The notes: generated from the sequence alone by a model not told the origin. Positions 13,301-41,931 are shown, counted from the stretch's first letter. The stretch is DNA of 45,999 bases from Nemertoderma westbladi (GCA_032718475.1 JAUCBJ010004658.1:1-45999), one strand, 5' to 3'. Program-made: numbers and translations.

Positions 13301-13739
13301 TATGCCTATACGTCGTTTATCATTAGTAGGCCTACGTATTCCAAGCGAGTCAGTACTAAAATAAGACACAATACGGTATGTTCAATAAACAACCCACAAC
13401 CATCAAATGCTTTCAACAGTAATGTATCCTATACCGGTATACTCTATGTAGTGGCATACGATAAGACTGCATATTCTTCACTGCATGCGTTGCGGGCGGT
13501 AAAATGTGTTAATAATTAATGTTTAGAGTTCAAAAATAGTTTACAAAGGAAATAGGCCGATGGTTCTTATCGATTCTCTATGCTTTTTATTGCCTTTGTT
13601 CACGATAGGGCAAGGATATACTGTATTTAATATGTTAACCCCTTGAAAAGGGAAGGGGGAGATTGGTTGCACTTGTTATTTAACCAAACAATTTGATTAT
13701 ATGCAGTATTTATCAGCTTTATCAGCTACAGTGACTTTA

Positions 13740-14564: not shown

Positions 14565-15278
14565 GCTACCGAGATACTCGTAACGGTTGACGATTTCTAT
14601 GGGAGTGTTATTCTAGGTAAACTTGTCTGCGCGAGCTAGATGCCCGGCTTTACGGAATTTAATAATTTTAGTTTTCTTTAAGTTTACAGTCATTCCGTTT
14701 AGGAGGCACCAATCATATAACGCATCGAGAGCGCGTTGTAGTTCCTCGCTGTCATCGGAATACAGTGCCAGATCATCTGCGTAGAATATCAGTTTAATAA
14801 ATCGACACACCCTAAGTATTGTGTGGGCGAGATCAGCGATAAATATTATAAAACACGTTGGGGATAGACAATCACCCTGGAGGATTCCGCGAAGTTGCTT
14901 AATGGTTTTCGATAGACGGAGTCTGTCGTATATTCGGATGTCATTGTTTAGTAGATCTTTAATTATACCGTAAATCTTCCCTTTAATACCAAAGTTATAT
15001 AACTTGTAAAGAAGAACTGCCCTTGGGACAACATCAAACGCCTTCCGGAAGTCGACGAACGCGACAAAAACAAATCGCTTGCCGGAGCCAGTTCGCCGGA
15101 AGGACGCCGAGATATCGGCAAGAAGTTGCTCCACCGCGTGGCGAGTAGACCTCCCCTGCATAAATCCGTATTGGACCCCGGGTATTAGGTGGATTACGTG
15201 TAGGCGAATTCGCTTATTAATTATTGATGTAAATAATTTCAGGAGAACCGAGAGGAGAGCGATTCCTCTATAATTAGC
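14565..15278 (-). pseudogene. LINE reverse transcriptase fragment (CR1/L2-group-like)
   Basis: NYRGIALLS, QYGFMQGRST, FVDFRKAFD, GILQGDCLSP, YADD, NLKKTK. After an in-frame TAG it continues IEIVNRYEYLG. Confidence 0.92.
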
Positions 15279-17054
15279 GTGTTGGTGAGAGTATTTCAAC
15301 CAAATTTGTTCGTAAATATCTCAGGAACATTAATCCCAACGATCTCAATTCCTATAACTTGATCAACTTCATTCGTCAAGATCCGGAATATGGCGATTTG
15401 TTCATCAACTCTCATCCAGAACTACAGGAAGTTCATAGACGACCCTATGAATATAGAGCCCGAGAACGCGAGTTAGAAAGAACTATCAAACAGAGGAAAT
15501 TTCTTACTACTCACGGTCTACCCACCGCTCTCGTGCAAACGACTCGTCAGGGACCAGTAAGAGCTGCTGTACTGAAACGCGCTCTGAAGGTTGTTCGACC
15601 TCACTCCACTGAGGTTGATATCGATCAACCGGGTACCTCGACCGGCAGATACACCGACCGTAATCCTAAACCTTCCAATGCAATTGTATTGCACCCTTCA
15701 CCCAGGAGTTATAGCCCTCCTAGTAAAGTGGCTCGCACCAAAGAGAAAAGGACTCTTGCTAGCCTCAAAAAACTGCGTAAACGCCATCCGCGTAAGAAAG
15801 ACTAACTGTTTAGAGTATTTTTATATTTTAGAAACTGTGATTTTTTATATTTTATAGAATTAAATCCCATTTTCTGGGAGCGGTGTAAAAGCTTTTGCGG
15901 ATATAACCAGTCATTTTTCTCCGCAATGAACTGTTTAGTTGTTTTAGCGGACATAACAAGCCATTTTCTCCGCAATGTACCCTGTAGGTGTTTTAGCGAC
16001 ATAACAAGCCATTTTATGCCGCAATACGCCAAATACTCTAAATAGAGTGTGGTTCAGATGACGAAATCTGTCAGCTGATTTGCTGTCGATGTGGAGCTTT
16101 CTTAACTTTCTTTGTTTGGCTCGCTCGACCAATCAGAGCGATTTTCATTTTATTTTGCACAGAAGCCTACGGGAAATCGCGCAATGCATTATGGTCTTTG
16201 TTTACCTTTCTGAGCGAGAACAACTGCTTGGAAATTATTCTGTACTTCTGTGTTGGAAGTTTCAGACTTTGGCCAACATTAGGCGGCTTTGATTATAAAA
16301 AAGTAAATATATTACCTGACTGATGAAACTGCATCTGGCTGCAAACCAAACAAACTGTCTGCACCAATTTCACCGCATTATTTTACTGCTATTTACTGTC
16401 GGTTATTAATTGTTACATGTTGATGGATATGTTGTTATATTTGGAGAATATCGAAAAATAATCATAAAACCCCAATCTTCTTGATTACCAAAGGTTAGAG
16501 AGACCGGTTACCGGTAGCAATTGCGACTTACATTACAGTGGTTTTAGTGTGCATTAAATGCTATTTCATAATCCCTACATGTGTCAGTTGCTATCCTCCT
16601 TATATATTATCAAATTCAGTGACGGTCGCCAGATCAGTGTGCAGCAATGTGAAGTCGTATGCAGTAGTGTGACAGATAATAAAGCATCTCCTAAAGAATG
16701 CGCCATTTACGAAAATCAATAGCCATCTCGTTGTATTTAGTATAAGTCATAACTCTGTTTTATACTTAAAGCGCCACGTCCTAAAGGAACTGTTAATATT
16801 TCCCCGAAAGTGAATAATATTCTCAGAGATTATATAGTAACTATCAATCGAATAATACCGTAGGTCTGCACCGGAATCCCTTCAAAGCATCCGAATCCAG
16901 TCTCCCTTAACTGTGGGTGAATGATAGCGCATAGACTGGCTTCGGCTAATGTTACTTCATGTGCATTAAATAATTGTTATAGGCTAAAGTCGATTTATAA
17001 ACAAGACACCTAAAATTGGCGGGTTAAACTGCTAAAGGTCTGAAAGCGCGAACA
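15276..17054 (+). mobile_element. 5'-truncated BEL/Pao element of a related subfamily (ORF3 C-terminus, PPT, 3' LTR)
   Basis: 15276-15805 is homologous to 31315-31843. Same GGGAGCGG PPT. LTR at 15884-17054. Confidence 0.9.
15884..17054 (+). repeat. LTR, diverged subfamily, 1171 bp
   Basis: TGTAAAAGCTTTTGC...GAAAGCGCGAACA termini are shared with the other LTRs; the interior is clearly diverged. Confidence 0.9.
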
Positions 17055-17962: not shown

Positions 17963-19268
17963 TAGTCCGCCTGCTATTCGTGTGCATCGAACTGCACTAG
18001 CGCGCCATCTAGACATCTAGAGGTTTTAAGAGTTTATTTTATTTGGAACAGTGGAGCACTTTATAAAAACCTTACACTACTTCGACCCCTCTTTCCATTC
18101 CTTACATGATTTCAACGTCCAATCAAATAATAACTTATTACCAATCCCAGGTGTTAATGCAAGAGGTGTTCCTAGTAGTGTAAGGATTGGGAATACGCGC
18201 CCGGCTTAACTTTGTAATTAATCTGTATCTTTGAGTAAGGTTTGTTTGGAAAACCGAGATTTCGTGATTTTTCCTAAAATTTAATGGGTTATCCAACAAA
18301 GCAAACGCCATTTACATGGTCATGTTAGTTTTCGTGCTGTGCTCCCTTTCTGGCACCCATCTCCAGTAGTTTCGTACTAAGATTTTCAATAGTTTTCATA
18401 ATTCACTAAAAATTAATTATATTAAAAAATTAATTTAAAATTAATTAAAATTAATTTATTTGCAATATATAGCGGTTTTTTTGGATGCTGAAAGCGATTA
18501 TAGAACTGCAATATTATTATTTATTTATTATTATTATATATTCGTGAAATTTTTTGGTAATTTTCAAAGTGTCACCTGGGGTACGAATAAAACAAGTAGT
18601 GCAAATATGTTAGTCAAAAATCACGTCAACAGCTTAAGTTCATTCAAATTTCGCATCCTTCCTGTTGGTACATGACTTGAATTTGCATAACTCAATGCAA
18701 TGATGTTGATGTTTGTTTTGTAGGCAGATACAGAGTGAGTACAAAACAAAGACCCAACACCCAATTATAAAGACCTGCATAATCATCTAACATGTGTTAA
18801 CTTTCGTTTATTGTTTTGGTTCCCCCAACACGCCTCAATAACGTGTTCCTTTACTAACCTGTTTCTTTAAATAGCAATGGTACTTATCGCTCTTATGGAC
18901 CTAACGCGACTTCACCTCTTTGTTTTGTACAGAACAGGCAGTAGTCATGGGTCTTTGTTTTGTACTCAACCGGCATATACATGTTGTTGGTTTACAATTG
19001 CGATACAGCAGAGATAGAGTGAGAGAGGATATATTATGGAGCTGGTAGAACATGCATCCAATCAGGTACAGTATTACCATATCCTCTTCATCTAACAGCC
19101 ACCCCAGACCTATGGGAGAAGATACATTGATGATGTGATGAGTACTAAGCTTATATACGATTGGTAGTTGGCTCTGGATAGGTGTCTCTCTTTAAACAAT
19201 ATTTATAAGGTGGCAGCAAGGTTGACTCGATTTCTCCATGTTTTGAACTGAAAAGACGATACCGAAGC
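17963..19268 (-). mobile_element. Degenerate Academ(X)-like transposon 3' part (continues 33114-~33200 after the LTR element)
   Basis: Minus-strand decayed translation VNELRYRLF..KHGEIESTLLPP...RANYQ...GW...WMHVLPAP then a Cys-rich tail. TAGTCC at 17963 is a possible terminus. Family assignment is from recalled motifs. Confidence 0.5.
18731..18977. mobile_element. Tc1/mariner-type MITE
   Basis: Inverted repeat TGAGTACAAAACAAAGACCCA / TGGGTCTTTGTTTTGTACTCA flanked by TA. Absent from the homologous segment at ~33910. Right end is imperfect. Confidence 0.7.
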
Positions 19269-20455
19269 TGTAAAAGCTTTTGCAGAATTAGCCGGTTATT
19301 TTCCCCGCAAAGTACTCTGTAGGTGTTTTAACGGACATAAAAAGCCGTTTCCTTACTGTACCGGTGTTTTAGTGGACATAAAAAGCCATTTCTTCTGTAT
19401 GTGTACCTTAGTGGACATAACTAGCAATTCTATGTCGCAATAGCTAGAATTCTCTTGAAACAGTGTAGTTACTATGACGACAGCTAACAGCTGATCTGTA
19501 CACGTGTAGTTTTTTCCTTGTTCTCCGTTGTTTCTTTGTTTGGCCAACCAATCAGAGCGATTCTCCTGCTATTTTGTACAGAAACCTCCGGGAAGTCGCG
19601 CAATGCATTATGGGTCAATGTTTACCTTTTTTCCTGAGCCCAGAACACCGCCTTTGGAACCTCTGTGTTTTCAGGCTTTAGCCCAACATTAGTAGGCTCG
19701 ATCATAGAAACGTATATCTGTTATCTTAACAAATCAATCATAACATAACTCACCTTATCATATTGTCAACTACAAACACCGCATTTTTACTGCTATTTAC
19801 TGTCGGTTATTGGTTATATCAGTTGATGGAATATTATTATATTTGGAATATCGATAAATAATTATAAAACCCTCAATCTTCTTGATATACTGAAGGTAAG
19901 AGACCGGTTACATATAACAGTTGTGACTCACATTAAAGTGGTTTTGGAGTGAATCTAATGCTATTTCATAGGCACTACATGTGTTGGTTGCTGTTCTCTT
20001 TATATGTGACTAAAATTAGTCAAGGTCGGCAGATCGGTGTGCAGTATTGTGCAGTAGTGTGTATGATTGTGACTGATAACAAAGCATCTCCTAAAGAATG
20101 CGCTATATACGTGAATCCGTAGCCATCCCGTTGTGTCTAGTTTAAGTCATAACTCTGTTTACATATTTAGAGCGCCACGTCCTAAAGGAACTGTTAATAT
20201 TTCCCGAAAGTGAATAATATTTGTCAGAGATTATATATTAACGATCAGTAGAATAATACAGTAGGCCTACATCGCAATAAGGTTGAGCTTCCGAATCCAG
20301 TCTCCCGGGTATATCCAGCGGGTGAATGGTCGCGCATAGACTGGCTTCGGCTAATGTAGTGTATCAAATACTCGTCATAGGCTAAAGTCGATTTATTATC
20401 TAGAAGACATCCAAATTTGGCAGGTTAAACTGCTAAAGGTCTGAAAGCGCGAACA
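19269..20455 (+). repeat. 5' LTR
   Basis: Direct repeat of 31922-33108, about 11 substitutions by eye. U3 has short GTTTTAGTGGACATAA-type subrepeats and a CCAAT box near 19548. Confidence 0.97.
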
Positions 20456-20466
20456 ATAACAGATAT
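20456..20466 (+). promoter_or_regulatory. Putative self-priming primer-binding site
   Basis: ATAACAGATAT directly after the 5' LTR. No TGG tRNA signature. Exact reverse complement of LTR positions 19714-19724 (ATATCTGTTAT). Confidence 0.55.
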
Positions 20467-21961
20467 TGCTTCTTTATTGCAGCGTAGGCAATAAAGCTGA
20501 AGTACCGGTCAACCGGTACCCCGTAGGCCTAACTACCCGGACCGGTACTTACAGCAGTACAGGTACAGCAGTATTATGCGATTGTGATATTGTATACCGG
20601 TAGGCCTTAATATTTAATCAGGGACGGCCGCCCTGGTTTTTTATTGAGATTTTACTTATTTCTGTCAGGTTTTATTTATTTGTAGGTTAATATTGAGCAG
20701 AAGACGTGTAAGCCTGCTCAGATTGTATAGATAATTTGTAGGCTGGACTGTTGTCTGACTGTTGTTAAGTCTGAAGAGATTGTAGTGTGTGTAGAGCGTA
20801 TGTCGGAAAAAGTACTAGTTAGGAACGTAGGGGCTTCCAGTGCTGTGAGGTAAATCCCCTTGAAAGAATAAGTCATACTACTCAGTTAGAACGCATACTA
20901 ACTAACCATTTCGGAGTCTGCATATACTGTGGTTTATTTAGGCTTGATAGTAGTCTGCCAGCGTTTGGTCTGTACTTTGTTTGTGTAGTCTGTAAAGGTC
21001 GCGTAATATTTATTATTCAGAGTTTATGCGATTATTCGCAACATTCATACCCCAAGTTTATTCCTACAGTAATTGTGCTTGTTATATATACCGTTATAGT
21101 TAAACTAACCCCGGTACTACATCAGGGCTGCTCGGCGTAGGTAAAGACTGGTGATTTTGTGCCCCGGTCACTCCAGCAGATACCGTGGTTCTTTTGGCTG
21201 TACAAGTATTTTTAACTACTGATTATTGGTTGTATAAGTACTTGTACCTAATTTAGGGTTTAGTGTACAGTGCTTTCCGAAGGTAATTAGTGTGTAGGCA
21301 GTATATTTGTGTTGTAAAGAGGTTAATAGGCACGTTGGTTCTGGTAGACCGCGGTAATTAACTTCTAGGTAGGAACACTCCGTGATACATAACGTAGTAC
21401 TTATAGCGATACGGCTATAAGTCGTCAGACGGTGGTATTTTTCCTATCTGGACAACGCAATATATTTACTACTACTTATTATTTTCAAATACCGTAGTAT
21501 CCTGTCCGTTGTAATAACCAGATATTCTAACCCTTTGTTAGGCTGGTTTGTAGACTTCTTGTAAAATTACCCTAAAAATTCGTACGTGTAATTTTTGTGT
21601 TTATTTAGAGATTGTAATCTCACCCCGAATTGTACGTAACTAGTAGTATTAAGTAACTTAGGTAAATTAGAATTATTCGTTTTAGTGTCCAACAAGTAGC
21701 ACTTCGCTGAGAGCGTACAGCTTCTGTGCAGTGACTCCTTCCTAGAAATAATAACATTTATTTCGAATATTGACAAAAACCCATTAAAACGGGTATATAT
21801 ATTATAAATCAACTCAAACCGATTTATAAAATAGTAGGCCTGTCTTACAACAATTAGGTCTAAATATCAGTTGGACTACTGCTTAAATAACGGTAATAAA
21901 GTAAAGTAAAGTAACCAAGTAACCCCTAAAATTCAGAAATTCAATTATTTAAAATAATTGA

Positions 21962-22220
21962 CATACCGGTATTTACAATAGGCTTATTATATTTATTTCT
22001 ATAAATTTAGGCTAAATTATATACCGGTATTCTGTAATTAATTCTAGTCTGTAATTATACTTATATATATACATTATAAGTGTAAGCTGTATACCGGTAT
22101 TCACGATAGGCCTATCATATATTTATATATATTTGCGCTGAAATTATATACCAGTATTCTGTGACAAACCTAGTCTGTAATAATACTTATATATATACTA
22201 TAAGCATACTGGTATTCTAA
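21962..22220 (+). repeat. Degenerate ~128-bp tandem duplication in the 5' leader
   Basis: Recurring ATACCGGTATT and CTAGTCTGTAAT..TACTTATATATATAC blocks. Confidence 0.75.
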
Positions 22221-22352
22221 TATATTGTATATATATTACGTTACACTGAGTAACGATATCGGTAATTAATTACTAGGCTAACAGTTGATACTGAATTACT
22301 AGACTTGCTTTAACTGTAATATAGCAGTAGGCATTCAACTGTACAAATAAAC

Positions 22353-25300
22353 ATGTCTGACACAAAGCAAAACCTGTCAGACAGTCTCCTAGATACCACA
22401 ATATGCGACCCAGACAGGAGTGTGGAACGTGTGAGACCGAAGTTCAATTCACCTCCTACTGTAAGAAAGATCATCCCTCCAGTAGTAGTAACAGATCCTA
22501 GGCTGGTCCAACACCATAGGTCAATCATAGGCACTCGAGCTCAGGTCAAGCAGGACCAAGAAGCAGCGGAACAGCAGCAACCCGCGAGCCGAGAACTTAT
22601 TTCTCAGCGGTCCGACAGCTCCAGTAGATGCGGTTTATTCGGACCCCCTTCTCATCCTTCCTGCAGCTGTACTCACTAGGGTATTGATTGCGGTGGAGGA
22701 ACACCAGATTGATTGGGCGAGAAGTAAGCGATCGACCAAGGATAGTTATGCGGGATATACAAGGGAAGAACTGAAGTCTATTGTCGAGTCGCAATGGAAC
22801 TTCCCCGGACCCGGACTCCCGTTTGACTTATCAGAAGCTGCCTGGGAAGACATACACAGGATGGGAGTGACAAAGGAAACCCGCGATCCAGCTGTATGGA
22901 AGAGGTCAGCAGCCGGATACGTACAGGGATTCTTCAGCTCTATGGAGCGATTAGAGGAACAATTGTTTCGACAACCACAAGGACCTCAAGAGCAGGGAGA
23001 GCTGCTTTATCAAGTTAGAGAAAGAATTCTAAGAATCGGACTAATCTTATCTGCCTTTGAGGAGGCTTCGAAAAGAAAACAAGACACGTCGTTGCAAGTT
23101 GCCGTAAAGACTTGGTTACAGCGGGTGAGTCTCCAAGTTCAAAGAACTGCTCCGTGGAAATCTCAGTTGGATGAGCGCTCAACCCATGGAGAATCAACAG
23201 ACGCTACCTTTTCCCAAGTGGAAAGCGAAGCGACAGCAGAGAAACCGCATAAGAGGGATGCTATTGACATCTATCTGTCAGACTATCAACGATTTGTAGG
23301 TGACGAAGAGTTGAGGAGACGGCTGAATGGACTTAGCCCCAATAGTGAAGGAGCCAAGCTTGTATTGGACGCAATCGATGTGGATATGTTAGCTGCGAAC
23401 CAAGCTAAATTCAATGAAAGCATCCGCATCACTAAGGTTCAAGAGGAACAAGTAAGGAAAAAACGTATAGAAGACAGAAAGACAGCAGCAGCAGCAGCGG
23501 CAGCGGCAGAAGTAGAAGCGGAAAGAAAGGCAGCAGAAGTGGAAAAGAAAGCGGCAATGGCAGTGGCAGAAGCAGAAAGAAAAGCGGCAGTGGCAGAAGC
23601 AGAACGGAGGGCATCTGAAGAGACAACCCAACTAGAGTTGGAAAATCTTCAAGAGAGGCAGGACAACTTCAATAAACAGTTAACAGCTAGTCAAATGCAG
23701 ATGATGAGTCAATCTACTCCCAAACGACAGGGATTTACATCATCTGATGAAGGCGATGCCACAGATCTTGAAGGCGGAGGAAATAGATCTCGTCTAAGTA
23801 GGCATAGAAGAATGTCCCACCGTCAGAAATTGCCTGATTTGCCCCCAGCTGTTAGAAAGCAACTAACTAACCCAGACTTAGGTAGTACAGAACCCACAGA
23901 CCAAATAATTAAAATAGAAAGACTCCCTACTATAGTAGATGAGCCTGAAATAATTAGGCCTGTTCTCGACACCACCCCTTCGGTGATAGAGACACCTGTA
24001 CTCCCAGAACTTACCTCTAAATTCCCTCTGCACAGCACTAAGCTACCTGTGCCCCACAGAACCATCCCTGAAAATGTTCATGTCCTGGACTCCGAGCGAA
24101 ATATTAATGATTTGTCGCCCGTTGTCCCTCGTCCGCCCGCTACAACGTTGGCGGCTCCCGCTTCGGCGGTCGAGTGGGTGGATGAGAGACGACGGGGGAT
24201 GGATCTCCTGCTCGGGCAGATGCAGGAGACTGTTCAGCAATTCAAGGGCACAGTAAGGGAAAGTAGGTTAGAGTTGCAAGAAGTGCAGCAAAGTATCGCG
24301 TTAGAACGCGATAAATTAGTAAACACCCAAAGAGGTATACCACCACCCCCGGTAACAATGTGTCAACCTGTTAGGTCTGAAGTATCTCATGCGCAAGGTG
24401 TGGAGCCTACACGCATCTATACTGCTAGTGAAGTAGAAACTCCTATAGTAAACCCTATTAAGGGTAATTATAAACCTGTTGACAATGATATCCCATATAG
24501 ACTTGATAATAATCCGAGAAATTTATATACCGATAACTCGATATTAAATAACACGATGGCCCAAGAAAGTTTTACGCGTCAAATGGCTACAACCGAAGCC
24601 CGTCAAGCGGTAAAGGTGGGAGAGATCGTCAAGTTCAATGGAGATGAGATGAAATGGCTACCTTTTAATGAATATTACAAAGATAACATACAGAACTCTG
24701 TGCTATCAAATGGAGAGAATCTTAGATTCCTCATCGAGTGCTTGGAAGGATCTCCCAAGTTAATGGCGTTAAAGTTTATTGGACATCCAGATGGATTAAG
24801 ACAAGTTTGGGATACCCTCAACATCAGGTATGGTAATAGGAATAACATAGCTAGGTATTTGTATGCAAAATTGGTAGCGCCCTGAAAATTCATTAGCAGC
24901 GGGATTATAGAGTTTTCCGATGAAATTCGGGAGATCTGTAGACAATTAGATTGGCTAGGTAAGTCTCATGAATATCAGAGTTCTATGGTTATTGGAGCCG
25001 TGGCCTCTACTTTACCGAAGGGTGGAGTAGGTACACGCTGGGATAAGAAAGTGTTATATATAATGGAACAGCAACGACGAGACCCTACCATGGCTGATCT
25101 CATGTCATTCTTAGATGGAGAAGTGAAATTACAGCTCCTAAAGCAGTCCAGAGAGAAGACACCGGAAAACAAGGTAAGTGAGAAACCCGTTTCTAGGAGA
25201 AAGGTAACACCAGTGTGTTATACCGACGATGGCGAAAGCCAGGCTTCTCAAGGAGAGGACAGCGAGAAAGACACTGAAAGATCTTATTATGTCAACAAAA

Positions 25301-25557
25301 CGCCAAAAGACGTAAGTAAATTCAGGTCCCGAACCAATGACAGGAGAGAACAGGTAAGAAAAACCCCTCCTACGTCTCCCAAGAGAATTCAGGTAAGAAA
25401 GCCCGAAGAAAGAGCGAGTGTGCACAACGTTACTCAAAATAAAGTAAGTAACATCAAACCAAAATGTGCGCTGTGTGACGGGCCACACCGTTTGAATGTG
25501 TGTGATGAATTCCTAAAGAAATCATTAACGGATAGACGGGAAGTCATGTGGGATAAG
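22353..25557 (+). pseudogene. gag: BEL/Pao gag (frameshifted near 22600 and 24880)
   Basis: Coiled-coil/Ala-Glu region, DUF1759-like KFNGDEMKWLPF...LSNGENLRFLIECLEG...LNIRYGN, and first zinc knuckle CALCDGPHRLNVCDEF. Confidence 0.88.
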
Positions 25558-26174
25558 CCGCATTTCACTTTATAGTGCCATGCCGCGCGTATCTCACCGA
25601 CGAACTTTTGCGGACGTTAATGGAGGAAATCGCCGCCTATCTCAACGAGAGACCGCTTATGCCAGTCTCATCGAGTCCCGATTCCCTGGAAGCGCTAACA
25701 CCCGCGCACTTCCTACTGAAGAAACCTGTGGCCATGCTCCCACAATCGGAAATCACAGACGGAGACGAATACTGCCGGCAAACTTGGCAACTTATGCAGT
25801 TGTTATCCCGTTGCTTCGCTGATCATTTCGAAAAACATTATCTGCCCACGCTACAACTTCGAACTAAGTGGTTTGCGCAGCAAGAAAACGTCAGCGCTGG
25901 AGACATGCTCCTTATTGTGGATTCAGATCTTCCACGTAAGCGGTGGCAGACAGGTCGTATCATCGAGACTCACATCTCGGGTGACGGTTTGGTGCGATCG
26001 GTAGAACTCGTCGTCATGCGACGTAACTTCAAGAAACCGGGAATTGTCTTCGAGACACAGCAGCTCAATCGCCCAGTTGGTCGTTTATGTTTACTGGAAA
26101 GAGACAGAGAACTCTCCGGAAACTATGGGAGGCAAGATACTCTTCCCACGACCACCTCCCTAATCCAACAATAA
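25558..26174 (+). pseudogene. pol: BEL/Pao integrase C-terminal remnant (DUF5641-like)
   Basis: LTDELLRTLMEEIAAYLNERPL...LTPAHFL...YLPTLQLRTKW...WQTGRIIETHISGDGLVRSV. Protease, RT, RNase H and the integrase core are absent. Confidence 0.9.
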
Positions 26175-26479
26175 TTCTTTTTCTCTTTCCTTACTGTCCG
26201 TATTACATTAGAAATACGTAACTACAGTAAGATGAAATGTCCGTACTTATTAAAGTACAATAAAGCTCCTACTATATTCAAGTATTATTGGTAAAGTAGA
26301 GTATTAGGAATGCAAAATTCAGATCCTCGTGTCTCGGCTAAACCAAGCTCTGGGTAGACCTTGGAAACGACTTGCCTCTTCTCACAGACATTGCTTCGTG
26401 CGATATTGCTCTCATACCGTATATTAAATAATACATATAGTAGCGTGATGTCCCTTTAACAGTAGCGTACAACGCAAAA

Positions 26480-26800
26480 TAAATCTGTTAAACCCTTTGA
26501 CCATCTGTAATTCTAGTCGATTAAGATATCGCGGCACCCACCGATATACTTGAAAGACAAAATTCTAGAATCAGTGGTTAACGTCCCCAGACAAGTTCTG
26601 GAATAAACTGGTGCCCATCCTAAATATTAATTATTAATATTTACAAAATCTGTCAAATTTTAGATCCTTTAAAATTCTAGTCTATTAAGATATCGTAGCA
26701 CTTACCGATACTCTTAAAAGGACAAATTTCCTAGAATTCAGGATCCTAGTCCCCAGACATGCTCTGGAATAAAATTGTGTCCATTTAATATTAAATAATA
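26480..26800 (+). repeat. Two diverged ~160-bp direct repeats, each able to form hairpins
   Basis: ATTCTAGTC..TTAAGATATCG..CGATA..CTT(G/A)A..GAC..CTAGAAT...CCAGACA.G.TCTGG at ~26509 and ~26673. Confidence 0.75.
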
Positions 26801-27607
26801 AAATTTACGGGAATAAATTTAAATTCATATTTTAATGAATTTAATAAATTGTCATTTTTATACAATTTATAACATTCCCAAAATTCCATAAATTAATAGA
26901 TCATGGGAGCGGAGATTCACCCTATTAAGTGTATTAGTGTGCGAGAATCTCCAATAGATAGTCAATAGCCGATAAAATTCATAAAATCATGTATAAAGAG
27001 GATATTGACAATTAAAGAATTACTATTAAATAGCATCCCAGATCTGTATGCATGAGAATTACCCTAATTCTACCACTAGCTTTCCATAATGTCACCATAG
27101 CAACAACCACGCTAGAATTAGAAGTGAGTTAAAAGAACAATAGAAAGCTTGCCCCATTGAATAGCATAGGGAATAAATAGCGCACTGCTAGTATCCAAGG
27201 ATACATAATAATAACGTGACATTCTGGAAGGCACTTGACTAACGGACAAATGGCCCGAATGTGTACAATTGGTGTCAGTTGTGTGGAGTTTGTGCGTTTA
27301 TAGGTGAATGTTACTACTAAAGTGTGTTTACAGTAGCGAGTCGCAATTGTGAAAGTAGCCTTAACTCTGGCGCAAAACCTGAAGTACATCTAAGCCTTTG
27401 GGACGGACAGTGGAGTGACTTGTGCCGGTTGTCGTTGTGTAGCTACATCGTTGGCGAAAGCACAGCGACGATGGTACATCGGCGCTGAGGATCTTACACT
27501 GTCCGGGGGCAGAGAGGGGTAGGCAGCAACGCCCTCTCTAGCCTAATATATAAACTCATTATAATATTGGTAAACTCATATAGCAGATATGACTGAGTTG
27601 ATAGAAG

Positions 27608-30600
27608 ATGATCTTGGTATTAGGGAGCGATATACTCTACCTTTACAGGGCGTTTGTCGATGGCTTGATATGCGGCGATGCTGGTCCAACTACTACGGAG
27701 GACGATGGTCGTTATATCGAACCGCCAATGTCCCAGGAGCAACTTACGCGTGAATTGGATTATGGAAAGTTCACCGCTCACTATATGCATCGCAATGGTA
27801 CGTATATGGACTTCTTAACTACTGGCCATCCTATCGATTTACACGATACGGACGATGTAGACACCGAAAGGGTAATGGTTTTATTTAAATATCATACCCA
27901 GCGGAGTCGGAATGATAAACCGAGAATTGAACACGAGAACTCTATTCGAAACAGACTCGAAAGGGAAGACGTTGAAGAGCCGGATAAACGCAGCGACTTC
28001 AACGATTATCTGGAATTCCTGAGAGAGACATATCTCAATATTGCCAGCCAACAAAATCTAGAAACTCGATATCCTCAAGGTATACATCATGACCCTATGA
28101 TAGAACTCAAACGACTCTATTTCACTATGATGTATCTTACCGCCGATCGACCGCTACCTGTCGTCCCAGATAGCTTCGAACAGATGGAGGAATATTGTAA
28201 AACTGGAGAACGATCACCCGCGTTTCCCCTGCAGGACGTGCGTCTTTGGTATTACTGCGACGAATGCCATAGACCCAATCAGCAAACGGAAAGACATAAA
28301 CATCCGCGGAGACGTTGCGCTAAACACAGTTTTACACGATATACTTATGGGAGTTTCGAGCGAAGCCTGTTCGACGTATCACCTACGGTCGCTCGGCTCA
28401 AACGATCCTTGAATAAACCAATGATCAGAGTTCCGGAATACTCGGTCAGACCTCCTCATTCCTCAGTTAGACCTCAGACTCTTGATCCTAATAGTATCAC
28501 GGATCCTCCTGAACTGTACTCACTGTTCAAAGATCTAGTGTTACCCGAACAGTTGATCGGTGGCACTCCGGTAGTGGGCTCACTAGATATTCGCCAACCC
28601 TACCTAGCCGGATTAGGACGCGGTCACCCAATATCGCCGTTTAACCCGTACAATCGTCCCGGCTTCACCCCGATACAACCCGTTACCGAAGTCGAGGAGA
28701 GCGTTGTACGAAACGCGTTAGATGCTATTCGACAGAAAATCGGAAAGGGAACTTACGATTGTTTAGAGAAACGCAAATTGCAGCAACAAGTTCAAGCGGT
28801 GAAAGAATTAGCTTTACCCCAGTTCGATAGAGAAATCCAGAATCTCGAGGAAGACATCGAATGTGGACAAACCTACTCTTTACAAGAGTTCCTAGACGAG
28901 CGTTTGCAACAACAAGCGGAGGAAAATCAGCTCGAGGAGAAACACATAGAAATGGATGAGAGAGAAGAAGCAGCTTTAGCCCAGCCAGAAGCTCAAATCC
29001 TTATGACGGATCTCTATTCCAAAACCATCATCCATCCTTCGATGGTTCCCCATTTCGGAGACAAACTCTTCGCCACGGCACAGCCTCAACCGGTTGATAT
29101 CAACCTAAGATCTCGAGATCTTATCGCTGACGCTCCCATGTTGCAACGTCCGCCAATCGAGGCCGCTCGTGTCGATGGTATACTCGTTTAACCTCCGGAC
29201 AATAGAGTGGATCTTGTCCGTCGTATGGTACACGATGTTAACATACGCGCTAGACCTTTACCGAACTCGTTTTATGGGATCAAAGATCACCCTTATTACG
29301 TCAATCTAACGCAATATTACATGGTAAAACCGGAAGATCCTACACATAGTCTGAGGTTTCTACCACTAATAAATCCTCTCGATCTTGTCGAACTCGAACA
29401 ACTGCAGAAACATCTGGATCAGTTAGTTAAAGTAAACTCATTTCGAAAACCATATAATGTTTCCAGAATAGAGAAAGAGACAATACCTCCGTATAATCTT
29501 GATGGATTCATCAAAACTCGATTAGTACACTGGAATCTTGACGTGTTATTCGAGGAGGAAAGAATACAACGATATGGAGATGTAGAAACATATACTACAC
29601 AATATTTAAAGTATAGAGATTTACCTAATGCTAGCGAATGCGCTACCTTGTGGCATCCAGTGGGAATGACTCTAGAAAACGCCACTAAAGAGTGGAATGA
29701 GACTCTTAACGTTATCGAGATGTATGGAGTTGTCACTTACGATAACGAAGGTAGCGTTCCGGTTGGAGAACTGGGAACTACGCGAATGATACATATACGA
29801 GGACTAGCTGGTTCTACCCACGTATTTACTCGAGCGTGTTCCGATGTGATTGATTATTCTTTTGAGACCCTTACCGAGATACAAAAGAAACTCCGACATG
29901 GACAATTCGAACTCGCGCAGCGTTACATCACCGACACCGAGCGCAAACCGGCCATGGGTATCGATGGATCGATGTTACCCCAGCCCGTGCTCGAGATGTT
30001 GTTTAACGAAAGAATCCTTAAAATCGGCTCAGCTGTTTATGGAGATCTACAAAACGACTTTCGGAACATGGAGAACATTCCATACCCTTTCGTCGATACT
30101 CAGCTGATTGCTCCCTGGGCAGAAGGCCGAGGTTTCTTCCGCACTATGTATGCCAATACACCCAGCGGCATTACTAAAGTACAACGAACCTCCATCGGAC
30201 ATCTTGCCTTTCAAGAATACGGATGGAATTTCAAGGTTGGAAATCCTATCAATTACCAACAAGTATATGGAGATCATTATTCTCGTTTATACTTTGACGG
30301 ACCATTGACCGCCCCTGGCGCCGTGTATAGCTTTATGAGTGTTCCACTTCGTCCCTCCTTAGCTATATACACGATCTTTGAAAACGCCGCACTTGCCGGT
30401 TGGCTAGCCGATGTGTGCAGTCGTACCATACGCGCCCATCCCTTAATACTTGGAACCAAACTCGCCAAGCTAGATGAACACAATAAATTCATCCGCTTCG
30501 AATGTTTCCGGCGCTTTCTGACTCCGTTCCGTAACGTTGATAGTCAGTTCAAGGACCGCGCTCTGACCAAACTCAGTCTAAGAGACTCAGCTGCAGAGAA

Positions 30601-31843
30601 GTTAAACAGCGCGGGATTCGCCCTTTTCCAGGACGTTTGTATACAGAACTTACACTCATCTGTTATACAAAGACCCCGAATACCCACGGGTTATTCTGTC
30701 GTGGAAGTTCAGACAGTGGGTCCGCTTGCGGAGACAGCCGCACCTACCTCAGCTATGCAATTGGAAGACGAACCAATATGCTTAGAATCTGAGGAGATTC
30801 AGCCTACAGCGCCCCGGAGCAGCGATAACGACTACGTCTTGGAGTGGTATCAAGGTCCACAATGTCTCACCGCATACGATTATCGGCACGCCAACTATGT
30901 TTCTCGAAAACGTTGCCGATTATGCGCATCGAGAGATCATTTCACCCCTATGGACTCAGACGTACCCTGCTCCTATTTCCACGAACAACCGATGATGGAG
31001 ATCTATTGTGCGTATTGCAGACTTAATAACTCGCACATTTTTGCAGTTTGCCCCCAATTTATGACTCAATGCCACCACTGTCAACTTAAAGGACATGCCA
31101 GTTTTAATTGCCCTTTTAACCGCGATTTAGAAAGCGTAGATGAGATGATTACCCTGCGCTACATCCGAGCTTGGGAAGCGAACGCGGATTTACATTGTGA
31201 GTCCCGCCATCGCTATTACCCTGGACGCGCTTACGAGGGAGTTTACGCATTCCATCCTTATCTATTCGCGTCTGTTGAACAAAAAACACGCATACCGAGT
31301 TACGAACTAATGAAGCGTGTTGGTGAGTGTATTTCCACCAAATTTGTTCGAAAATATCTCAGGAACGTCAATCCTAACGATATTACTTCATACCATTTGA
31401 TCAATTTCATCCGTCAAGACCCTGAGTATGGCGATTTATTTATCAACTCGCACCCTGAGTTACAGGAAGTATCTCGAAGGCCCTACGAATATCGAGCCCG
31501 AGAACGCGAGCTGGAAAGAACCATTAAACCGAGGAAGTTTCTCACCACTCACGGTCCACCTACCGCTATTGTCCAGACGACACGTCAAGGACCAGTAGGA
31601 GCTGCTGTCCTGAGACGCGCCCTAAAGGCCGTTAGACCTCGCTCCACTGAAGTTGATATCGATCAACCAGGTACCTCGACCGGCGGATACACCGATCGTA
31701 ATCCTAAACCTTCTGATGCAATTGTATTGCACCCTTCACCCAGAAGTTATAGCCCTCCTAGTAAAGTGGCTCACCCCAAAGAGAAAAGGACTCTTGCTAG
31801 CCTCAAAAAACTACGTAAACGCCGTCCGCGTAAGGAAGACTAA
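27608..31843 (+). CDS. ORF3: ~1400-codon accessory protein with a DEDDy-like 3'-5' exonuclease domain and CCHC zinc knuckles (one in-frame TAA at 29189-29191)
   Basis: The 527-aa and 878-aa ORFs share a frame and are separated by a single stop. ExoI VVTYDNEG (~29741), ExoII LPQPVLEMLFNERILKIGSAVYGD (~30044), FVDTQ, TSIGHLAFQEYG, ExoIII-like PLRPSLAIYTIFE (~30368). Then CRLCASRDH..C, CAYC..H..CP, CHHCQLKGHASFNC, and a basic C-terminus. Confidence 0.75.
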
Positions 31844-31913
31844 CTGTTTAGAGTATCTTTTATATTTTAGAAACTGTGATTTATATATTTTATAAATTTA
31901 AATCCCATTTTCT

Positions 31914-31921
31914 GGGAGCGG
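31914..31921 (+). promoter_or_regulatory. Polypurine tract
   Basis: GGGAGCGG abutting the 3' LTR; identical in the truncated copy at 15876-15883. Confidence 0.7.
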
Positions 31922-33108
31922 TGTAAAAGCTTTTGCGGAATTAGCCGGTTATTTTCCCCGCAAAGTACTCTGTAGGTGTTTTAACGGACATAAAAAGCCG
32001 TTTCCTTACTGTACCGGTGTTTTAGTGGACATAAAAAGCCATTTCTTCTGTATGTGTACTTTAGTGGACATAACTAGCAATTCTATGTCGCAATAGCTAG
32101 AATTCTCTTGAAACAGTGTAGTTACTATGACGACAGCTAACAGCTGATCTGTACACGTGTAGTTTTTTCCTTGTTCTCCGTTGTTTCTTTGTTCGGCCAA
32201 CCAATCAGAGCGATTCTCCTGCTATTTTGTACAGAAACCTCCGGGAAGTCGCGCAATGCATTATGGGTCAATGTTTACCTTTTTTCCTGAGCCCAGAACA
32301 CCGGCTTTGGAATCTCTGTGTTTTCAGGCTTTAGCCCAACATTAGTAGGCTCGATCATAGAAACGTATATCTGTTATCTTAACAAATCAATCATAACATA
32401 ACTCACCTAATCATATTGTCAACTACAAACACCGCATTTTTACTGCTATTTACTGTCGGTTATTGGTTACATCAGTTGATGGAATATTATTATATTTGGA
32501 ATATCGATAAATAATTATAAAACCCTCAATCTTCTTGATATACTGAAGGTAAGAGACCGGTTACATATAACAGTTGTGACTCACATTAAAGTGGTTTTGG
32601 AGTGAATCTAATGCTATTTAATAGGCACTACATGTGTTGGTTGCTGTTCTCTTTATATGTGACTAAAATTAGTGAAGGTCGGCAGATCGGTGTGCAGTAT
32701 TCTGCAGTAGTGTGTATGATTGTGACTGATAACAAAGCATCTCCTAAAGAATGCGCTATATACGTGAATCCGTAGCCATCCCGTTGTGTCTAGTTTAAGT
32801 CATAACTCTGTTTACATATTTAGAGCGCCACGTCCTAAAGGAACTGTTAATATTTCCTGAAAGTGAATAATATTTGTCAGAGATTATATATTAACGATCA
32901 GTAGAATAATACAGTAGGCCTACATCGCAATAAGGTTGAGCTTCCGAATCCAGTCTCCCGGGTATATCCAGCGGGTGAATGGTCGCGCATAGACTGGCTT
33001 CGGCTAATGTAGTGTATCAAATACTCGTCATAGGCTAAAGTCGATTTATTATCTAGAAGACATCCAAATTTGGCAGGTTAAACTGCTAAAGGTCTGAAAG
33101 CGCGAACA
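31922..33108 (+). repeat. 3' LTR
   Basis: Direct repeat of 19269-20455, followed by TSD GAAGC. Confidence 0.97.
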
Positions 33109-33519
33109 GAAGCTCGTTCACGTCATTAACTTCTGACATTCATGTATAGCAAAAAGTATTATGCATAAGTCAGGTCCAAGATTAGCTGATATAGTGTTTA
33201 TGTTACAATGCGTTTATTCTACTTAGAGAGCCACACTTTTGAAAAAGCTGGCATTTCAGGACATCGTTTTCATCCCTTGTAATGTATTTGAGTTGGTTGA
33301 AGGTCATGATGGCATTGATTTGTGCCCATTTATTGCCGACACCCTCATTATCATCTCGAATATGAATGTCACATACTTGATCAAGTCTATGACGTTTGCT
33401 ATTGGATACCCCCCCCCCCCCCCCCCCCCCCCCCCCCACAACCCCTTTCAGTGAAACCTGCCTCTGCACTGATGTCTATATTATTCTTAACCTTCCAACA
33501 CATGTTAATATTCATCATT

Positions 33520-36157
33520 GGCGAACATTGGCAACTATCAGAATCGTATCTAGAGATTTAGAAAGTTTTATATGCCAATTATATCTCAGGTGGTCAGATA
33601 TTAATGACGTGAACGTGCTTCAGTATCGTCTTTTAATTTCAAAAAGTGGAGAAATCGAGTCAACCTTGCTGCCACCTCACCTTGTAAGTATGTTTAAACA
33701 CCTATATATCCAAAGCCAAACCAAGCGTATATTTGGAAAAAAGTTTAGTATCCATCATCAATGTACCTTCTCCCATTATACTGTAATGAGGGGGATATGA
33801 TAATACTGTACCTGATTGGATGCATGTTCTTCCAGCTCCATCATCAATCCTCTCTCTCTCTCTCTCTCTGCTGTATTGAAATTGTACTACGTCATGTAAA
33901 CCACTAACGTATCTGCCTACAAAATAAACTTCATTGCATTGAGTTGTACAAATGCACCAAATAGACTGTAAAAGCTTTTGCGGAATTAGCTGGTTATTTT
34001 TCCCGCAAAGTACTCTGTAGTTGGTTTAACGGACATAAAAAGCCGTTTCCTTACTGTACCGGTGTTTTAGTGGACATAAAAAGCCATTTCTTCTGTATGT
34101 GTACTTTAGCGGACATAACTAGCAATTTTATGTCGCAATAGCTAAAATCCTCTTGACACAGTGTAGTTACCATGACGACATCTAACAGCTGATATTGCCA
34201 CGTGGAACATCTCTTTGTTCTTTGTTCTTTCTTCTTTGTTTTTGACTCTGTGTTGGAGGTTGTATACAGAAACTCATGAATTCAGTCAGTATGTGTATTT
34301 TGTCCATAGCCAGAAGACCGGCTTTGGAACCTCTGTGTTTTCAGGCTTTAGCCAAACATTAGTAGGCTTTGGTCATAGAAACGTATATCTGTTATCAAAC
34401 TCACTACTCTACTCACCTCACATAATCATATTGTCAACTACAAACACCGCATTTTTACTGCTATTTACTGTCGGTTATTCATTATATCGGTTGATGGAAT
34501 ATTATTATATTTGGATAATATCGACCAATAATCAGAAACCCCAATCTTCTTGATATACTGAAGGTTAGAGAGACCGGTTACATATAACAATTGCGACTTA
34601 CATTAAAGTGGTTTTGGAGTGAATCTAATGCTATTTCATAGGCACTACATGAGTCGGTTGTTGTTCTCTTTATATGTGACTAAAATTAGTGAAGGTCGGC
34701 AGATCGGTGTGCAGCATTGTGCGACAGTGTACATGATTGTGAGTGTGACTGATAACAAAGCATCTCCTAAAGAATGCGCTATATACGTGAATCCATAGCC
34801 ATCCCGTTGTGTCTAGTGTAAGACATAACTCTGTTTACATATTTAGAGCGCCACGTCCTAAAGGAACTGTTAATATTTCCCGAAAGTGAATAATATTTGT
34901 CAGAAATTATATATTAACAATCAGTCGAATAATACAGTAGGCCTACACCGCAATAAGGTCAAAGCTTCCGAATCCAGTCTCCCGGGTATATCCAGCGGGT
35001 GAATGGTCGCGCATAGACTGGCTTCGGCTAATGTAGTGTATCAAATACTCGTCATAGGCTAAAGTCGATTTATAATCTAGAAGACATCCAAATTTGGCAG
35101 GTTAAACTGCTAAAGGTCTAAAAGCGCGAACATAGACGGAGGCGGAATTGGAATGAACTGATGCACTTGACACCTCAGATGATTTCTAATACAGCAATAA
35201 TTTTATCACATACATTAACTACTCGACTAAGAATATTCTATTTGCTCGGATGACATCATCGCATACCAATTAAGAATACGTACATACATAATTATGTATT
35301 TATTATTAAATAAAGATGATTTAGTATTCAAAAATGTTATTATCGATGGAATCATCTTTGCAGAAATAATCTAGGAATAATTATGATAAATATTAAAAAT
35401 ATATAAATGGAAGTGAATATACTAAAAGAACTAACCTCTCTTTTGCGGTAGGTGTTAAGTCATTTGTTTGTGTCATATCTGAGTCATCTTCAATTGCATC
35501 TGTAGTTGTAGTCATGGTAACCTGTGAAGGAGTATTATCTGAAATGCCATTTAGATGTCACTTGTCATTTTAAAGTGATTTGTAGTCACATCTTGATTGT
35601 TTTTTATTGACATAAATATTTGTTAAAGTCATTATTTTGAAACAGAGTGGAATGAGATTAAATTGATGAAAAATAAAAATATTTCAAACATGGGTATATC
35701 TTTGGAACCTTATATCACCGTTATAACAAAACAGGTTTAGCTCTCAGTATACCAAAATTTTCCAAAACTAATATTCAATAAAACGTGGCAATTTGTTTTT
35801 AAAGTAATGGTATTGTTCTAGAATGTTAGCTATTTTTCTAAAACATGTCAGTTTTTATTTAGCAGCGTTCCCATGGTAACAATAATTATATTCCAGAATT
35901 TTATGTCACATTTAGAATTGTTAGACCAGTAGCTATCTTTTTCAAAAGATGCGATAAATTTATATTGAGTTATTAGAATACTACAGCATGTTTGTTGTTT
36001 TACCATTTCTATGACAACCGGTGATAACACCAAGTCAGCTACCGATTCAGATTTGTTATCATATCAAAATGAATGGCCAGAAGCTAGGTCTTCCCAAAAA
36101 TATAAGTTCCGGGTGGTTACCAAAAAGTATCCCCTATGCTGGCTGGCCCATGGACTA
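33520..36157 (+). mobile_element. Second degenerate Academ(X)-like 3' part, interrupted by the solo LTR
   Basis: LESFICQLY...VNVLQYRLLISKSGEIESTLLPP, then decayed WMHVLPAPSSIL and a Cys-rich tail. Possible terminus ...GGCCCATGGACTA at 36157. Inverted homology to 18630-19268. Confidence 0.5.
33967..35132 (+). mobile_element. Solo LTR of the same BEL/Pao family, 1166 bp
   Basis: TGTAAAAGC...GCGCGAACA with its own 5-bp TSD TAGAC at 33962-33966 and 35133-35137. Confidence 0.95.
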
Positions 36158-38959: not shown

Positions 38960-41931
38960 GGGGGGGGTATAATAATAGACCATAAATTTTGGACGCTCTA
39001 TAGATGCATCTAAAATTATTTTTTTGCTAGGAGTCATATTTTGAGTTTTGTGACTAAGGAATTAAAATTTTGGAAAAATTCAAAATTTTTCAAAAATTTT
39101 ATTTTTTCGCCAAAATTTTGCCAAAAAGGCAAAAAATGAAAAAAATGCTAAGGCTTCTAGCCAAATTATCCAAATACTTCAAAACTCACGTGAGAAAGTC
39201 AGTAGGACGTCCCAAACGATTTGCATTGACAAAATTTTGATATCTTGTCGAGAAGAGCAAAAAGCACCAAAAGGGACATTTTTGGTCCAAAAAATGACCA
39301 AAATTTCAAAAATTTGGCCCAATTTTTCGAAAAAATTGAGTTTTTAAAAAAATATCAAAATTTTGTCAATGCATTTTGTAAAGGACCCCACAATCATCGA
39401 TCATGCAAAAAATCAGCACATTTGGGCCATTTTTGACAGAGCCTTAGCATTTTTCGTTTGAAAAATGCTAATTGGAGAAAAACAGGTTTAAAGTTAAAGT
39501 TTGTTTATTTTATTATGAAGTTAAATTTTTGAAATTTCGATTAAATGAGATAAACTCAGTGAATTCTAATAAAATTTTTTTCATCTAGTTCCAAATTTTA
39601 TGTAGATTCCAAAAATTGTATTATTATCGCATGTTAATCTTAAGGTCATATTATTTCATATAAAAGACATGTTAAAGGGTGTGAATTTTTTGACAAAATT
39701 TGAACAAAAAACTGAAATCAATAAAAAATAATAATTCAAATTAGGCACTATATTAATATTCATTAATTAAAATTAAATTTAAAAATTTAAAATGAAATTT
39801 AAAAAGTTAATTAAAAGGCCCCAGATTTATATGACTTATGATCGGGTGCTTGCCATTTCTTTGATGGTTTGTGTTCAGTACTTTTCTGTTTACGTTTTAG
39901 GTTGACCTTCTTTGCTCGTTCTGCAAGGTCACCATCATCTTCCTCAAGGCCAAGCTTCTTCAAAATTATCTGTTCTGCTGAACACCCCCGATTGTGAACT
40001 AAAACAGTATACGAAACATGAAACATGAGTGTACTTAGACCCACAAACGTTTCTTTAGATAGACGAGTCCATAGCCGTGAATGCAGAGATTCGTTCGGAT
40101 TTTGTGTGAGGCCAGGGATACAGCGTTCCAGAATTTCGCTCGTTGTTAGGCGTTCATAAACAGGTAAAATAAACTTCATGTTTGCCTCTTTTATAAATGT
40201 TACATTTTTGTAACTTATAGCATTGTTTTTGAATTTACACCACTTATTTTCAGGGCATAACTCATGTTGTTTCTCAACATTATCTCCATAATCACAATAG
40301 TGATGTGTTGCAGCCACGATTTCACTTCGAATCGTGCTTATGAGCACTGATTTTTCAGTCTCTGAGAGTTTATCTATATCAACATCTGCTATATTCTTCA
40401 CGATCGTATTTCGGTAATATGACTGCAATTGGTGACATCGACTATCAGTCAACCCTCCCTTGCCTCCAAGTTTATGAGTTTTGCGAGCATTGGAAAGACC
40501 TGTATATAGACGCTTCGCAACGTGGTTCAGGCACTCTTTCTTCTGCACTGTTACATTCTGCTCTCTGTAAGGATCGGACTCCAATATGTTCTTCATAACG
40601 CTGCTGTCGCCATCCGATACCATTGATTGATATATGACACCATTATTTGATAGGGATCTATTGAATAGTTTAACAGCTAAATGAGGTTCCATACCTGAAC
40701 TGGACCCTGAATAATTTATATTACACTCATGATCAGCATTGCCATCTTCTTCTTTGTTGCGGCTACAAATATTACAGTATTTTGAACAAACATCGAAATC
40801 AATGACATGTCCTGTATTTTCGGATATGATAAACGCGGCACCATAAAGTGATTGATGGCCTCTTTTCATCCATGTACCGTCAAAAGATATACATATTTCC
40901 CTGTCAATCTCTTTCATTGCACAATTTTTTGCATTTCCTCGTGCAAGTGATTCCGTGACCTTCGAGATTTCGTTGACATGAAATTGCCAGGCTCTCTTCG
41001 CAACAGGAGATGGTAGTGACATTATTCTAGAAAACGTCTCTGCATCACCATGGGTCCCACCAACACAAAGCCAAGCCAGTACTGCACGAAGATTCACATC
41101 CGCTGTTTTTCTTCCAGGACGAGGTTCAGTTCGAGAAACTTGGTCGCTCGTGAAAGTAGAATATTGCCAATCACAACGTGAACATTTCCCCTCAAAATTG
41201 GTACTATAACCACGATGTGACTCATTTATCACTACTGTACCGTCACATTGCTTATCATCATGTTTCTCCATTATCAGTTTCTTTATTATTTGCGTTGCTA
41301 CAACGTTATATCCCTCCAACTTTCCATCTGAGGGTAGGACATTCAGATTCGATGCTATTAGCGACGGTTCTCGATCTTTTGGCACTACCGGTACCGGTAC
41401 TGAAATCGATTTCATATGCGCGAGGTTCAATGTACCGGTATCTTGTTTCTTGGTTCCTCGAAATCCTGCTTTCCGTTGTTGAGTTATTCGTGGCATACTG
41501 TATTATAAAAATTATATCGTCAACGATGTATGTACAATTTTCGATTCGAAGATGGAGGACGCTCTATAGTCTGTGTCCGTCAAAACTGCTGATTGCATTG
41601 ATTGAAACACCAATACAGCATACAGTTAGTAACTAAAACATAACAATGTGCAAATTCTCGTTTTAAACTTCCCGCTAAAATACATTCCAACCTGTAATAA
41701 CTTATTAGCCAATACAATGATTTCAGTGCAACAAGCCGGAAATTTTGTTAATTTTTGTCATTTTTTTCAAATAATTTTCAGGATGCGTGTCTATATAATG
41801 AGCCATAACTCGAAAACTAGACAAGCTAGAAATAAACTGTTTACAGATTTGAAATCTCCATAAAATTTGCTACAAGAAACGGGTATAAAATTTTTTTTAT
41901 ATTTTTTGACCCCAATTATTATACCCCCCCC
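38960..41931 (-). mobile_element. Kolobok-like DNA transposon, 2972 bp, apparently complete
   Basis: 17-bp TIR GGGGGGGGTATAATAAT. TTAA TSD at 38956-38959 and 41932-41935. Empty site CGTCATTAAATAATTC at 13-28. Confidence 0.85.
39811..41496 (-). CDS. DDE transposase, 561 aa (Mutator-like domain family with CxxH; Kolobok-type termini)
   Basis: N-terminal H..C..CxxC zinc site, ISFDGTWMKRGHQSLYG (D), SDGDS (D), ECLNH (CxxH), TQNPNES (E). ORF is uninterrupted. Confidence 0.88.
   Translation of the reverse strand: MPRITQQRKAGFRGTKKQDTGTLNLAHMKSISVPVPVVPKDREPSLIASNLNVLPSDGKLEGYNVVATQIIKKLIMEKHDDKQCDGTVVINESHRGYSTNFEGKCSRCDWQYSTFTSDQVSRTEPRPGRKTADVNLRAVLAWLCVGGTHGDAETFSRIMSLPSPVAKRAWQFHVNEISKVTESLARGNAKNCAMKEIDREICISFDGTWMKRGHQSLYGAAFIISENTGHVIDFDVCSKYCNICSRNKEEDGNADHECNINYSGSSSGMEPHLAVKLFNRSLSNNGVIYQSMVSDGDSSVMKNILESDPYREQNVTVQKKECLNHVAKRLYTGLSNARKTHKLGGKGGLTDSRCHQLQSYYRNTIVKNIADVDIDKLSETEKSVLISTIRSEIVAATHHYCDYGDNVEKQHELCPENKWCKFKNNAISYKNVTFIKEANMKFILPVYERLTTSEILERCIPGLTQNPNESLHSRLWTRLSKETFVGLSTLMFHVSYTVLVHNRGCSAEQIILKKLGLEEDDGDLAERAKKVNLKRKQKSTEHKPSKKWQAPDHKSYKSGAF

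Follow-up and report, generated by a model that had tools for sequence, protein, structure and literature searches.

An RNase D-like zinc-knuckle open reading frame in the env position of a BEL/Pao-type retrotransposon from Nemertoderma westbladi

Accessory open reading frames of the DEDDy exonuclease type (ORF3s) have been published for the bdelloid rotifer long terminal repeat (LTR) retrotransposons Juno and Vesta and for Athena/Terminon elements (PMC5408684, PMC6431247, PMC5718144). For BEL/Pao elements, surveys name env as the extra gene, and the word "exonuclease" is absent from their main text (PMC3118150, PMC6238403); Pao-like gags are described with a triple Cys-His box, the first being CX2CX3HX4C (PMC554778). 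The trypanosome RNase D, TbRND, requires its zinc knuckles for RNA binding and trimming (PMC7797062). In Tf1 and Tj1, the primer site right after the 5′ LTR is complementary to a segment of the LTR (PMC4600332, PMC10085805). Here we describe a retrotransposon in a stretch of Nemertoderma westbladi DNA, GCA_032718475.1 JAUCBJ010004658.1:1-45999 (45,999 nucleotides, one strand 5′ to 3′; hereafter the window), whose ORF3 has an RNase D-like domain and zinc knuckles. The original prediction for this locus had named a BEL/Pao retrotransposon with such a frame in the env position and had pointed to rotifer precedents, which are indeed in print (PMC5408684).

ORF3 lies between an integrase remnant and the purine tract that adjoins the 3′ LTR, just where it had been placed (Table 1). 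The predicted frame of about 1400 codons exists and starts with ATG, but it is broken at codon 528 by an in-frame stop that had gone unreported and that splits it into stop-to-stop frames of 528 and 883 amino acids (aa). Contigs from four runs (X1 to X4; at most three samples, one organism label) cover 30 of 30 bins of the element interior in all four runs, and their whole depth, again in 4 of 4, reads a sense codon at this position. The stop is therefore private to the window copy, and the family form of ORF3 is one long frame. No RNA data set was listed as containing the sequence, a result that carries no information on expression. From base composition, such a length with no more than one stop has a chance of about 3e-31. 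Compared with a truncated second copy in the window, the last 175 codons carry 50 synonymous and 20 non-synonymous changes, giving a ratio of non-synonymous to synonymous rates (dN/dS) of 0.09; this part of ORF3 is under purifying selection. Among the other ORF3 variants listed, 7 of 10 are third-position changes. The nuclease domain is intact and lies downstream of the stop. The frame had been predicted not to be env, and this is correct: the best 19-residue hydropathy mean is 1.33, leaving no membrane helix or transmembrane anchor, and the family search returned no match to an envelope glycoprotein. The N-terminal half (27608-29700), about 700 residues, matches no known domain or family; along it are a Cys/His cluster (aa 217-241) and stretches rich in proline and in acidic residues.

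Five motifs, from VVTYDNEG to AIYTIFE, occur in ORF3 in the order originally given (aa 708, 790, 828, 862, and 919). Only 2 of the 18,950 NCBIfam models match, both of them RNase D (E 0.0032 and 0.02). When 301 bacterial genomes were searched blind in six frames, 64 gave matches with E no higher than 1, and 18 of the 20 best loci are RNase D-type domains. A hidden Markov model built from 30 RNase D domains scores 20.2 bits on the ORF3 domain, against a maximum of 4.5 in 1000 shuffles, and hhalign gives a probability of 82-86%. The ExoII aspartate is present with its L...K...DL...DTQ block, and ExoIII keeps the spacing and the tyrosine of PL-x6-Y-x3-D. The glutamate in place of the ExoIII aspartate, already remarked on in the original prediction, is shared with a distant homologue, P0002, and is thus probably characteristic of the family rather than damage. 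For ExoI, the E-INS-i alignment puts D712/E714 of VVTYDNEG on the D-x-E position, and the candidate region contains an insert of 35-45 aa. On sequence grounds the RNase D-like (DEDDy) assignment holds for ExoII through ExoIII, where the RNase D matches and P0002 agree, but the proposed ExoI register is not significant on its own. The confident DEDD fold that had been expected was not obtained. Single-sequence AlphaFold reached a predicted local distance difference test score (pLDDT) of 32; with RNase D rows it reached 51, high only around ExoII and circular, since those rows had been used. Fold matches of this second model are likewise weak and circular (best Foldseek E 0.07; best Z 4.6, with a root-mean-square deviation of 3.6 and 85 aligned); the top rows are DEDDy proteins, and Egalitarian, EXD1, WRN, and Pol I exonucleases are among the weak matches.

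The three predicted Cys/His knuckles are present and a basic tail follows, but only two knuckles have near-canonical spacing (CX2CX5HX4C and CX2CX4HX4C), the first being CX2CX4HX9C. Among 1.84 billion representatives, only two proteins match the window protein, P0002 (E 1.2e-6) and P0003, and both have the layout of ORF3: a DEDD-like domain, a triple knuckle, and a short conserved module. Knuckles plus module score 29.4 bits, against a maximum of 10.3 in 1000 shuffles; the module alone scores 7.1 bits, which 1 of 1000 shuffles reached. P0002 is about 30% identical; it retains the knuckles and, at RNase D spacing, D-x-E, D, and PL-x6-Y-x3-E. Its ExoII and ExoIII segments align with those of ORF3, a result matched by 0 of 5000 shuffles. 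The Atlas neighbours of P0002 belong to DNA_pol_A_exo1 families, and the first of them has zf-CCHC as well (0.86, no more than a lead); the second Atlas match of P0002 is EXD1-like (0.77). P0003, at 124-3685 of contig L001, has two such knuckle-plus-module units, and downstream of it lies LTR-like and transfer RNA (tRNA)-type primer-site-like sequence. Read by eye, an intronless ORF on this contig is followed by a purine run and by about 350 bp containing AATAAA; beyond these come a TGG-type primer site and the first part of a further ORF, an arrangement that suggests a second LTR element of unassigned group. Word-based searches found no homologue with ORF3 and, with an alignment, only P0002 itself. 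Viral contigs, JGI metagenomes, and phages contained no relatives, and plasmids gave only weak rows, one of six lying under an rnd gene. We are highly confident that ORF3 is a real, selected protein of the DEDDy-plus-knuckle type.

The LTR element that carries ORF3 spans 19269-33108, and one 5-bp target-site duplication (TSD) bounds it on both sides. Its LTRs have TG...CA ends and differ at 11 positions (99.07% identity); since they are nearly identical and flanked by the TSD, the insertion is recent. The gag remnant keeps its first Cys-His box, CX2CX3HX4C, the remaining boxes having been lost in a deletion. Protease, reverse transcriptase (RT), RNase H, and most of the integrase are deleted, and the window copy is therefore non-autonomous; among the contig matches listed, there is no loose end or joint at the pol deletion. 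The DUF1759 and DUF5641 matches both exceed the curated cutoff, and we take these families, a gag and an integrase tail, to be associated with BEL/Pao. It is on them and on the paired LTRs that the BEL/Pao assignment, correctly made in the original prediction, rests, no RT being left here for phylogeny. Judged by these features, the element is a young member of an abundant BEL/Pao family, with 101,589 contig records in run X1, a figure that is not a copy number. The integrase remnant is separated from ORF3 by a 1.4-kb spacer, in which a duplication of about 165 bp (77%) lies at 26481-26808. An RT fragment (RVT_1, E 3.7e-33) on the minus strand at 14613-15320 adjoins the truncated second family copy at 15276.

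Table 1. Features of the ORF3-bearing element and of related copies in the window
Feature	Coordinates	Strand	Remarks
Truncated divergent copy	15276..17054	+	ORF3 last 175 codons (89% aa identity), purine tract, LTR; lacks 5′ part
5′ target-site duplication (5 bp)	19264..19268	.	5-mer recurs at 33109-33113
5′ LTR, 1187 bp, TG...CA	19269..20455	+	99.07% identical to 3′ LTR
Candidate self-primer 11-mer, complementary to bases right after LTR	19714..19724	+	Also in 3′ and solo LTRs
Primer-binding position, no tRNA-type TGG	20456..20466	+	Pairs with 19714-19724
gag remnant (DUF1759, E 8e-6)	22531..25575	+	One in-frame stop at 24883-24885, then truncated
Integrase C-terminal remnant (DUF5641, E 1.3e-19)	25557..26174	+	
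ORF3, 1411 codons, ATG start	27608..31843	+	Between integrase remnant (DUF5641) and purine tract before 3′ LTR
In-frame stop, codon 528	29189..29191	+	Absent from contigs of runs X1-X4
RNase D-like (DEDDy) domain	29699..30430	+	ExoI candidate D712/E714 (29741, 29747; register unproven), ExoII D813 (30044), ExoIII Y921 and E925 (30368, 30380)
Three Cys/His knuckles	30914..31111	+	zf-CCHC_3, E 0.0012
Post-knuckle module	31112..31312	+	Common to P0002 and P0003 (two copies in P0003)
Short purine tract adjoining 3′ LTR	31914..31921	+	
3′ LTR	31922..33108	+	Paired with 5′ LTR
Solo LTR, same family	33967..35132	+	Own 5-bp TSD

The 11 bases that follow the 5′ LTR are the exact reverse complement of a segment within the LTR. 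Complementarity of at least 11 bases occurred in 9 of 5000 dinucleotide shuffles and at 3 of 11,441 interior positions, the site itself included. In the folded leader, nine core pairs of the primer duplex have a probability of 0.95-1.0, and the LTR end is predicted to pair also with an inner LTR segment, like one flank of the Tf1 pretzel. Contigs reveal family variants at three places in the primer-site region; at one of them, 20467, the more frequent allele of the family creates a twelfth pair. In the divergent upstream LTR, the candidate self-primer differs at 4 of 11 positions. We regard this complementarity as a candidate Tf1-like self-priming signature. The window contains no tRNA gene, and no element-encoded tRNA-like primer was found in it. 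A primer formed at a splice junction was rejected (best spliced match 12 nucleotides, poor donor, no better than the unspliced one), and a partial match of the site to a tRNA anticodon loop was set aside because it is only 7 nucleotides long. Downstream of the candidate self-primer, the LTR holds a candidate 76-bp intron (19896-19971) with strong donor and acceptor, consistent with a long transcribed R/U5. A hairpin is predicted at 20469-20499, directly downstream of the primer site.

We propose that ORF3, a conserved accessory gene, couples three zinc knuckles to an RNase D-like domain, and that its protein would act as a knuckle-guided 3′-to-5′ trimmer of RNA. By analogy with trypanosome RNase D, the knuckles would hold single-stranded RNA and feed its 3′ end to the active site, where D712, E714, D813, Y921, and E925 would form a working two-metal center. 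The enzyme would stop at a duplex, leaving a paired 3′-OH, and could work in trans for copies without pol or without the nuclease domain. Its substrate would be the element's own RNA ends, possibly including a primer predicted from its own leader; with the self-complementary primer site, primer trimming gains a concrete candidate substrate. That the nuclease is catalytically active seems to us slightly the better bet. Knuckle-guided trimming of the element's own RNA ends is a tentative reading, to which we give a little less than an even chance, and that the substrate is specifically the self-primer is doubtful. Most doubtful of these is the boldest version, a BEL/Pao lineage that has given up tRNA priming in favor of priming from its own leader and that devotes a knuckle-guided DEDE exonuclease of its own to cutting this RNA back to a paired 3′ end.

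Several observations weigh against an active trimmer or against the primer as its substrate. The VVTYDNEG register is not significant alone, since 986 of 2000 shuffles score as well; MAFFT modes other than E-INS-i often prefer VIDYSFE, and residues 1-84 of the AlphaFold model, mostly at pLDDT below 50, support neither register. Pfam gives no DEDD match for the window protein, and PDB sequence searches with it returned knuckles or noise only. ExoIII has E for D, we found no assay of such a D-to-E form in the literature, and TbRND D230A, in which we read D230 as the ExoIII aspartate, is described as leaving only trace activity (PMC7797062). The dN/dS of 0.09 covers the region after the knuckles, with the nuclease domain outside it, and contig joints that skip 2.7-2.8 kb indicate that derivatives without the nuclease domain exist. 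P0003 is degenerate, having lost the ExoI glutamate and ExoIII, and it lies upstream of a tRNA-type TGG site. Contig depth disagrees with the window copy at two primer-site bases, the first (about 37% of depth) and the eighth (about 10%), and these variants break the pairing with this LTR. The divergent LTR predicts four compensatory changes, none of which is seen in the contigs; these are short, so that the two partners cannot be linked to one copy. The Tf1 primer is produced by RNase H cleavage, with no exonuclease known to take part.

Some of these points suit a protein whose nuclease fold is weak or dead and which acts as an RNA-binding scaffold like Egalitarian or EXD1, packaging, protecting, or transporting element RNA. 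The ExoIII change, the uncertain ExoI with its insert, the degenerate P0003 with its doubled knuckle module, the long N-terminal half without a known domain, and the presence of Egalitarian and EXD1 among the weak fold matches would all fit. However, distant as it is, P0002 keeps acidic residues at all four positions and the tyrosine, which is hard to explain without metal binding, and we consider a scaffold rather unlikely. We assign a similarly low probability to a nuclease aimed at the host, one that counters silencing by over-trimming or degrading the precursors of Piwi-interacting RNAs (piRNAs) or small interfering RNAs directed at the element. Such a trans-acting suppressor would account for the retention of ORF3 in copies that lack pol, and it agrees with the abundance of the family in contig records and with the EXD1-like Atlas match. 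Mature piRNA 3′ ends are 2′-O-methylated, however, and resist such enzymes. Animal DEDDy relatives work in small-RNA pathways (Mut-7/Nibbler, EXD1; in part PMC5408684), but the rotifer study saw no clear link of the DEDDy ORF3 to silencing or to copy number (PMC5408684).

It is very unlikely that ORF3 acts on DNA, as an exonuclease serving reverse transcriptase or integrase by proofreading or by trimming the ends of cDNA. WRN and the Pol I exonucleases, which share the fold, are among the weak fold matches, but the sequence matches favor RNase D, and CCHC knuckles bind mostly RNA. A host gene captured once and carried passively is already disfavored, and we think it highly improbable. Cellular proteins with the Exo-plus-knuckle layout do occur (TbRND; the Atlas cluster), yet ORF3 is intronless and contig-covered in all four runs, and a second divergent copy has evolved at the low dN/dS given above. 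The distant homologue in L001 is intronless too and, by eye, is followed by purine-tract-, LTR-, and primer-binding-site-like sequence.

The rest of the window holds further repeats. The inverted repeats that bound an element at 4005-10899 are about 460 bp long (96%) and contain tandem units of 41-43 bp; the element has a candidate TSD of 6 bp. Its 757-codon ORF (6987-9260) weakly matches HECT at the C terminus (E 0.0018), and no transposase was matched. A Mutator-like transposase (PF20700, E 1.4e-55) lies on the minus strand at 39811-41502, and another repeat is present in two copies about 95% identical, at 11132-13308 and 42892-45994.

Compared with described BEL/Pao elements (Belpaoviridae; PMC3118150, PMC554778), the element shares TG...CA LTRs within the range of 0.2-1.2 kb, the DUF1759 gag, the CX2CX3HX4C box, and DUF5641. 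Their usual length is given as 4.2-10 kb, whereas this element measures 13.8 kb even without most of pol, and the extra gene known in them is env, while the extra ORF here is not. Our literature search, with Repbase, GyDB, subscription journals, and supplements outside it, found in print neither a DEDD nuclease ORF or Exo-plus-knuckle layout in BEL/Pao nor self-priming in this group. With Tf1/sushi elements (PMC4600332, PMC10085805) it shares a primer site after the 5′ LTR that is complementary to an LTR segment, and one predicted flanking duplex. Those elements, whose 5′ end is mapped, belong to the Ty3/gypsy chromoviruses; the present one is BEL/Pao, and about 740 nucleotides separate the partners. 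If true, the boldest reading would give a retroelement its own primer-maturation enzyme, and whether ORF3 matures primers or counters silencing, the function would be new for retrotransposons.

In TbRND, too, CCHC knuckles come after a DEDD Exo domain, a combination that its authors regard as very unusual (PMC7797062). It is described as a cellular mitochondrial enzyme of 351 aa (7c42 chain) with four knuckles that trims U tails, whereas ORF3 is a 1411-aa element protein in which a spacer of about 170 aa precedes the three knuckles; as far as shown, the similarity extends to shared domain types (E 2.9; Z 3.3). The rotifer Juno/Vesta ORF3 has in common with ours an RNase D-like DEDDy domain in the ORF3/env position, the lack of a transmembrane segment, and an altered acidic motif (PMC5408684). 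The rotifer elements belong to other lineages with a dUTPase-bearing pol, and the available text of that paper does not mention BEL/Pao as a group. Their motif is DEED, ours D-E-D-E, and no triple knuckle module is described for them, a distinction drawn from description only. What such ORFs do is the question left by the rotifer work, and it can now be tested, because the domain is intact after the stop, TbRND is a studied look-alike, and the primer site is a defined candidate substrate. BEL/Pao joins the rotifer elements as a carrier of nuclease ORF3s, here as a large Exo-plus-knuckle protein carried by an abundant family and under strong selection.
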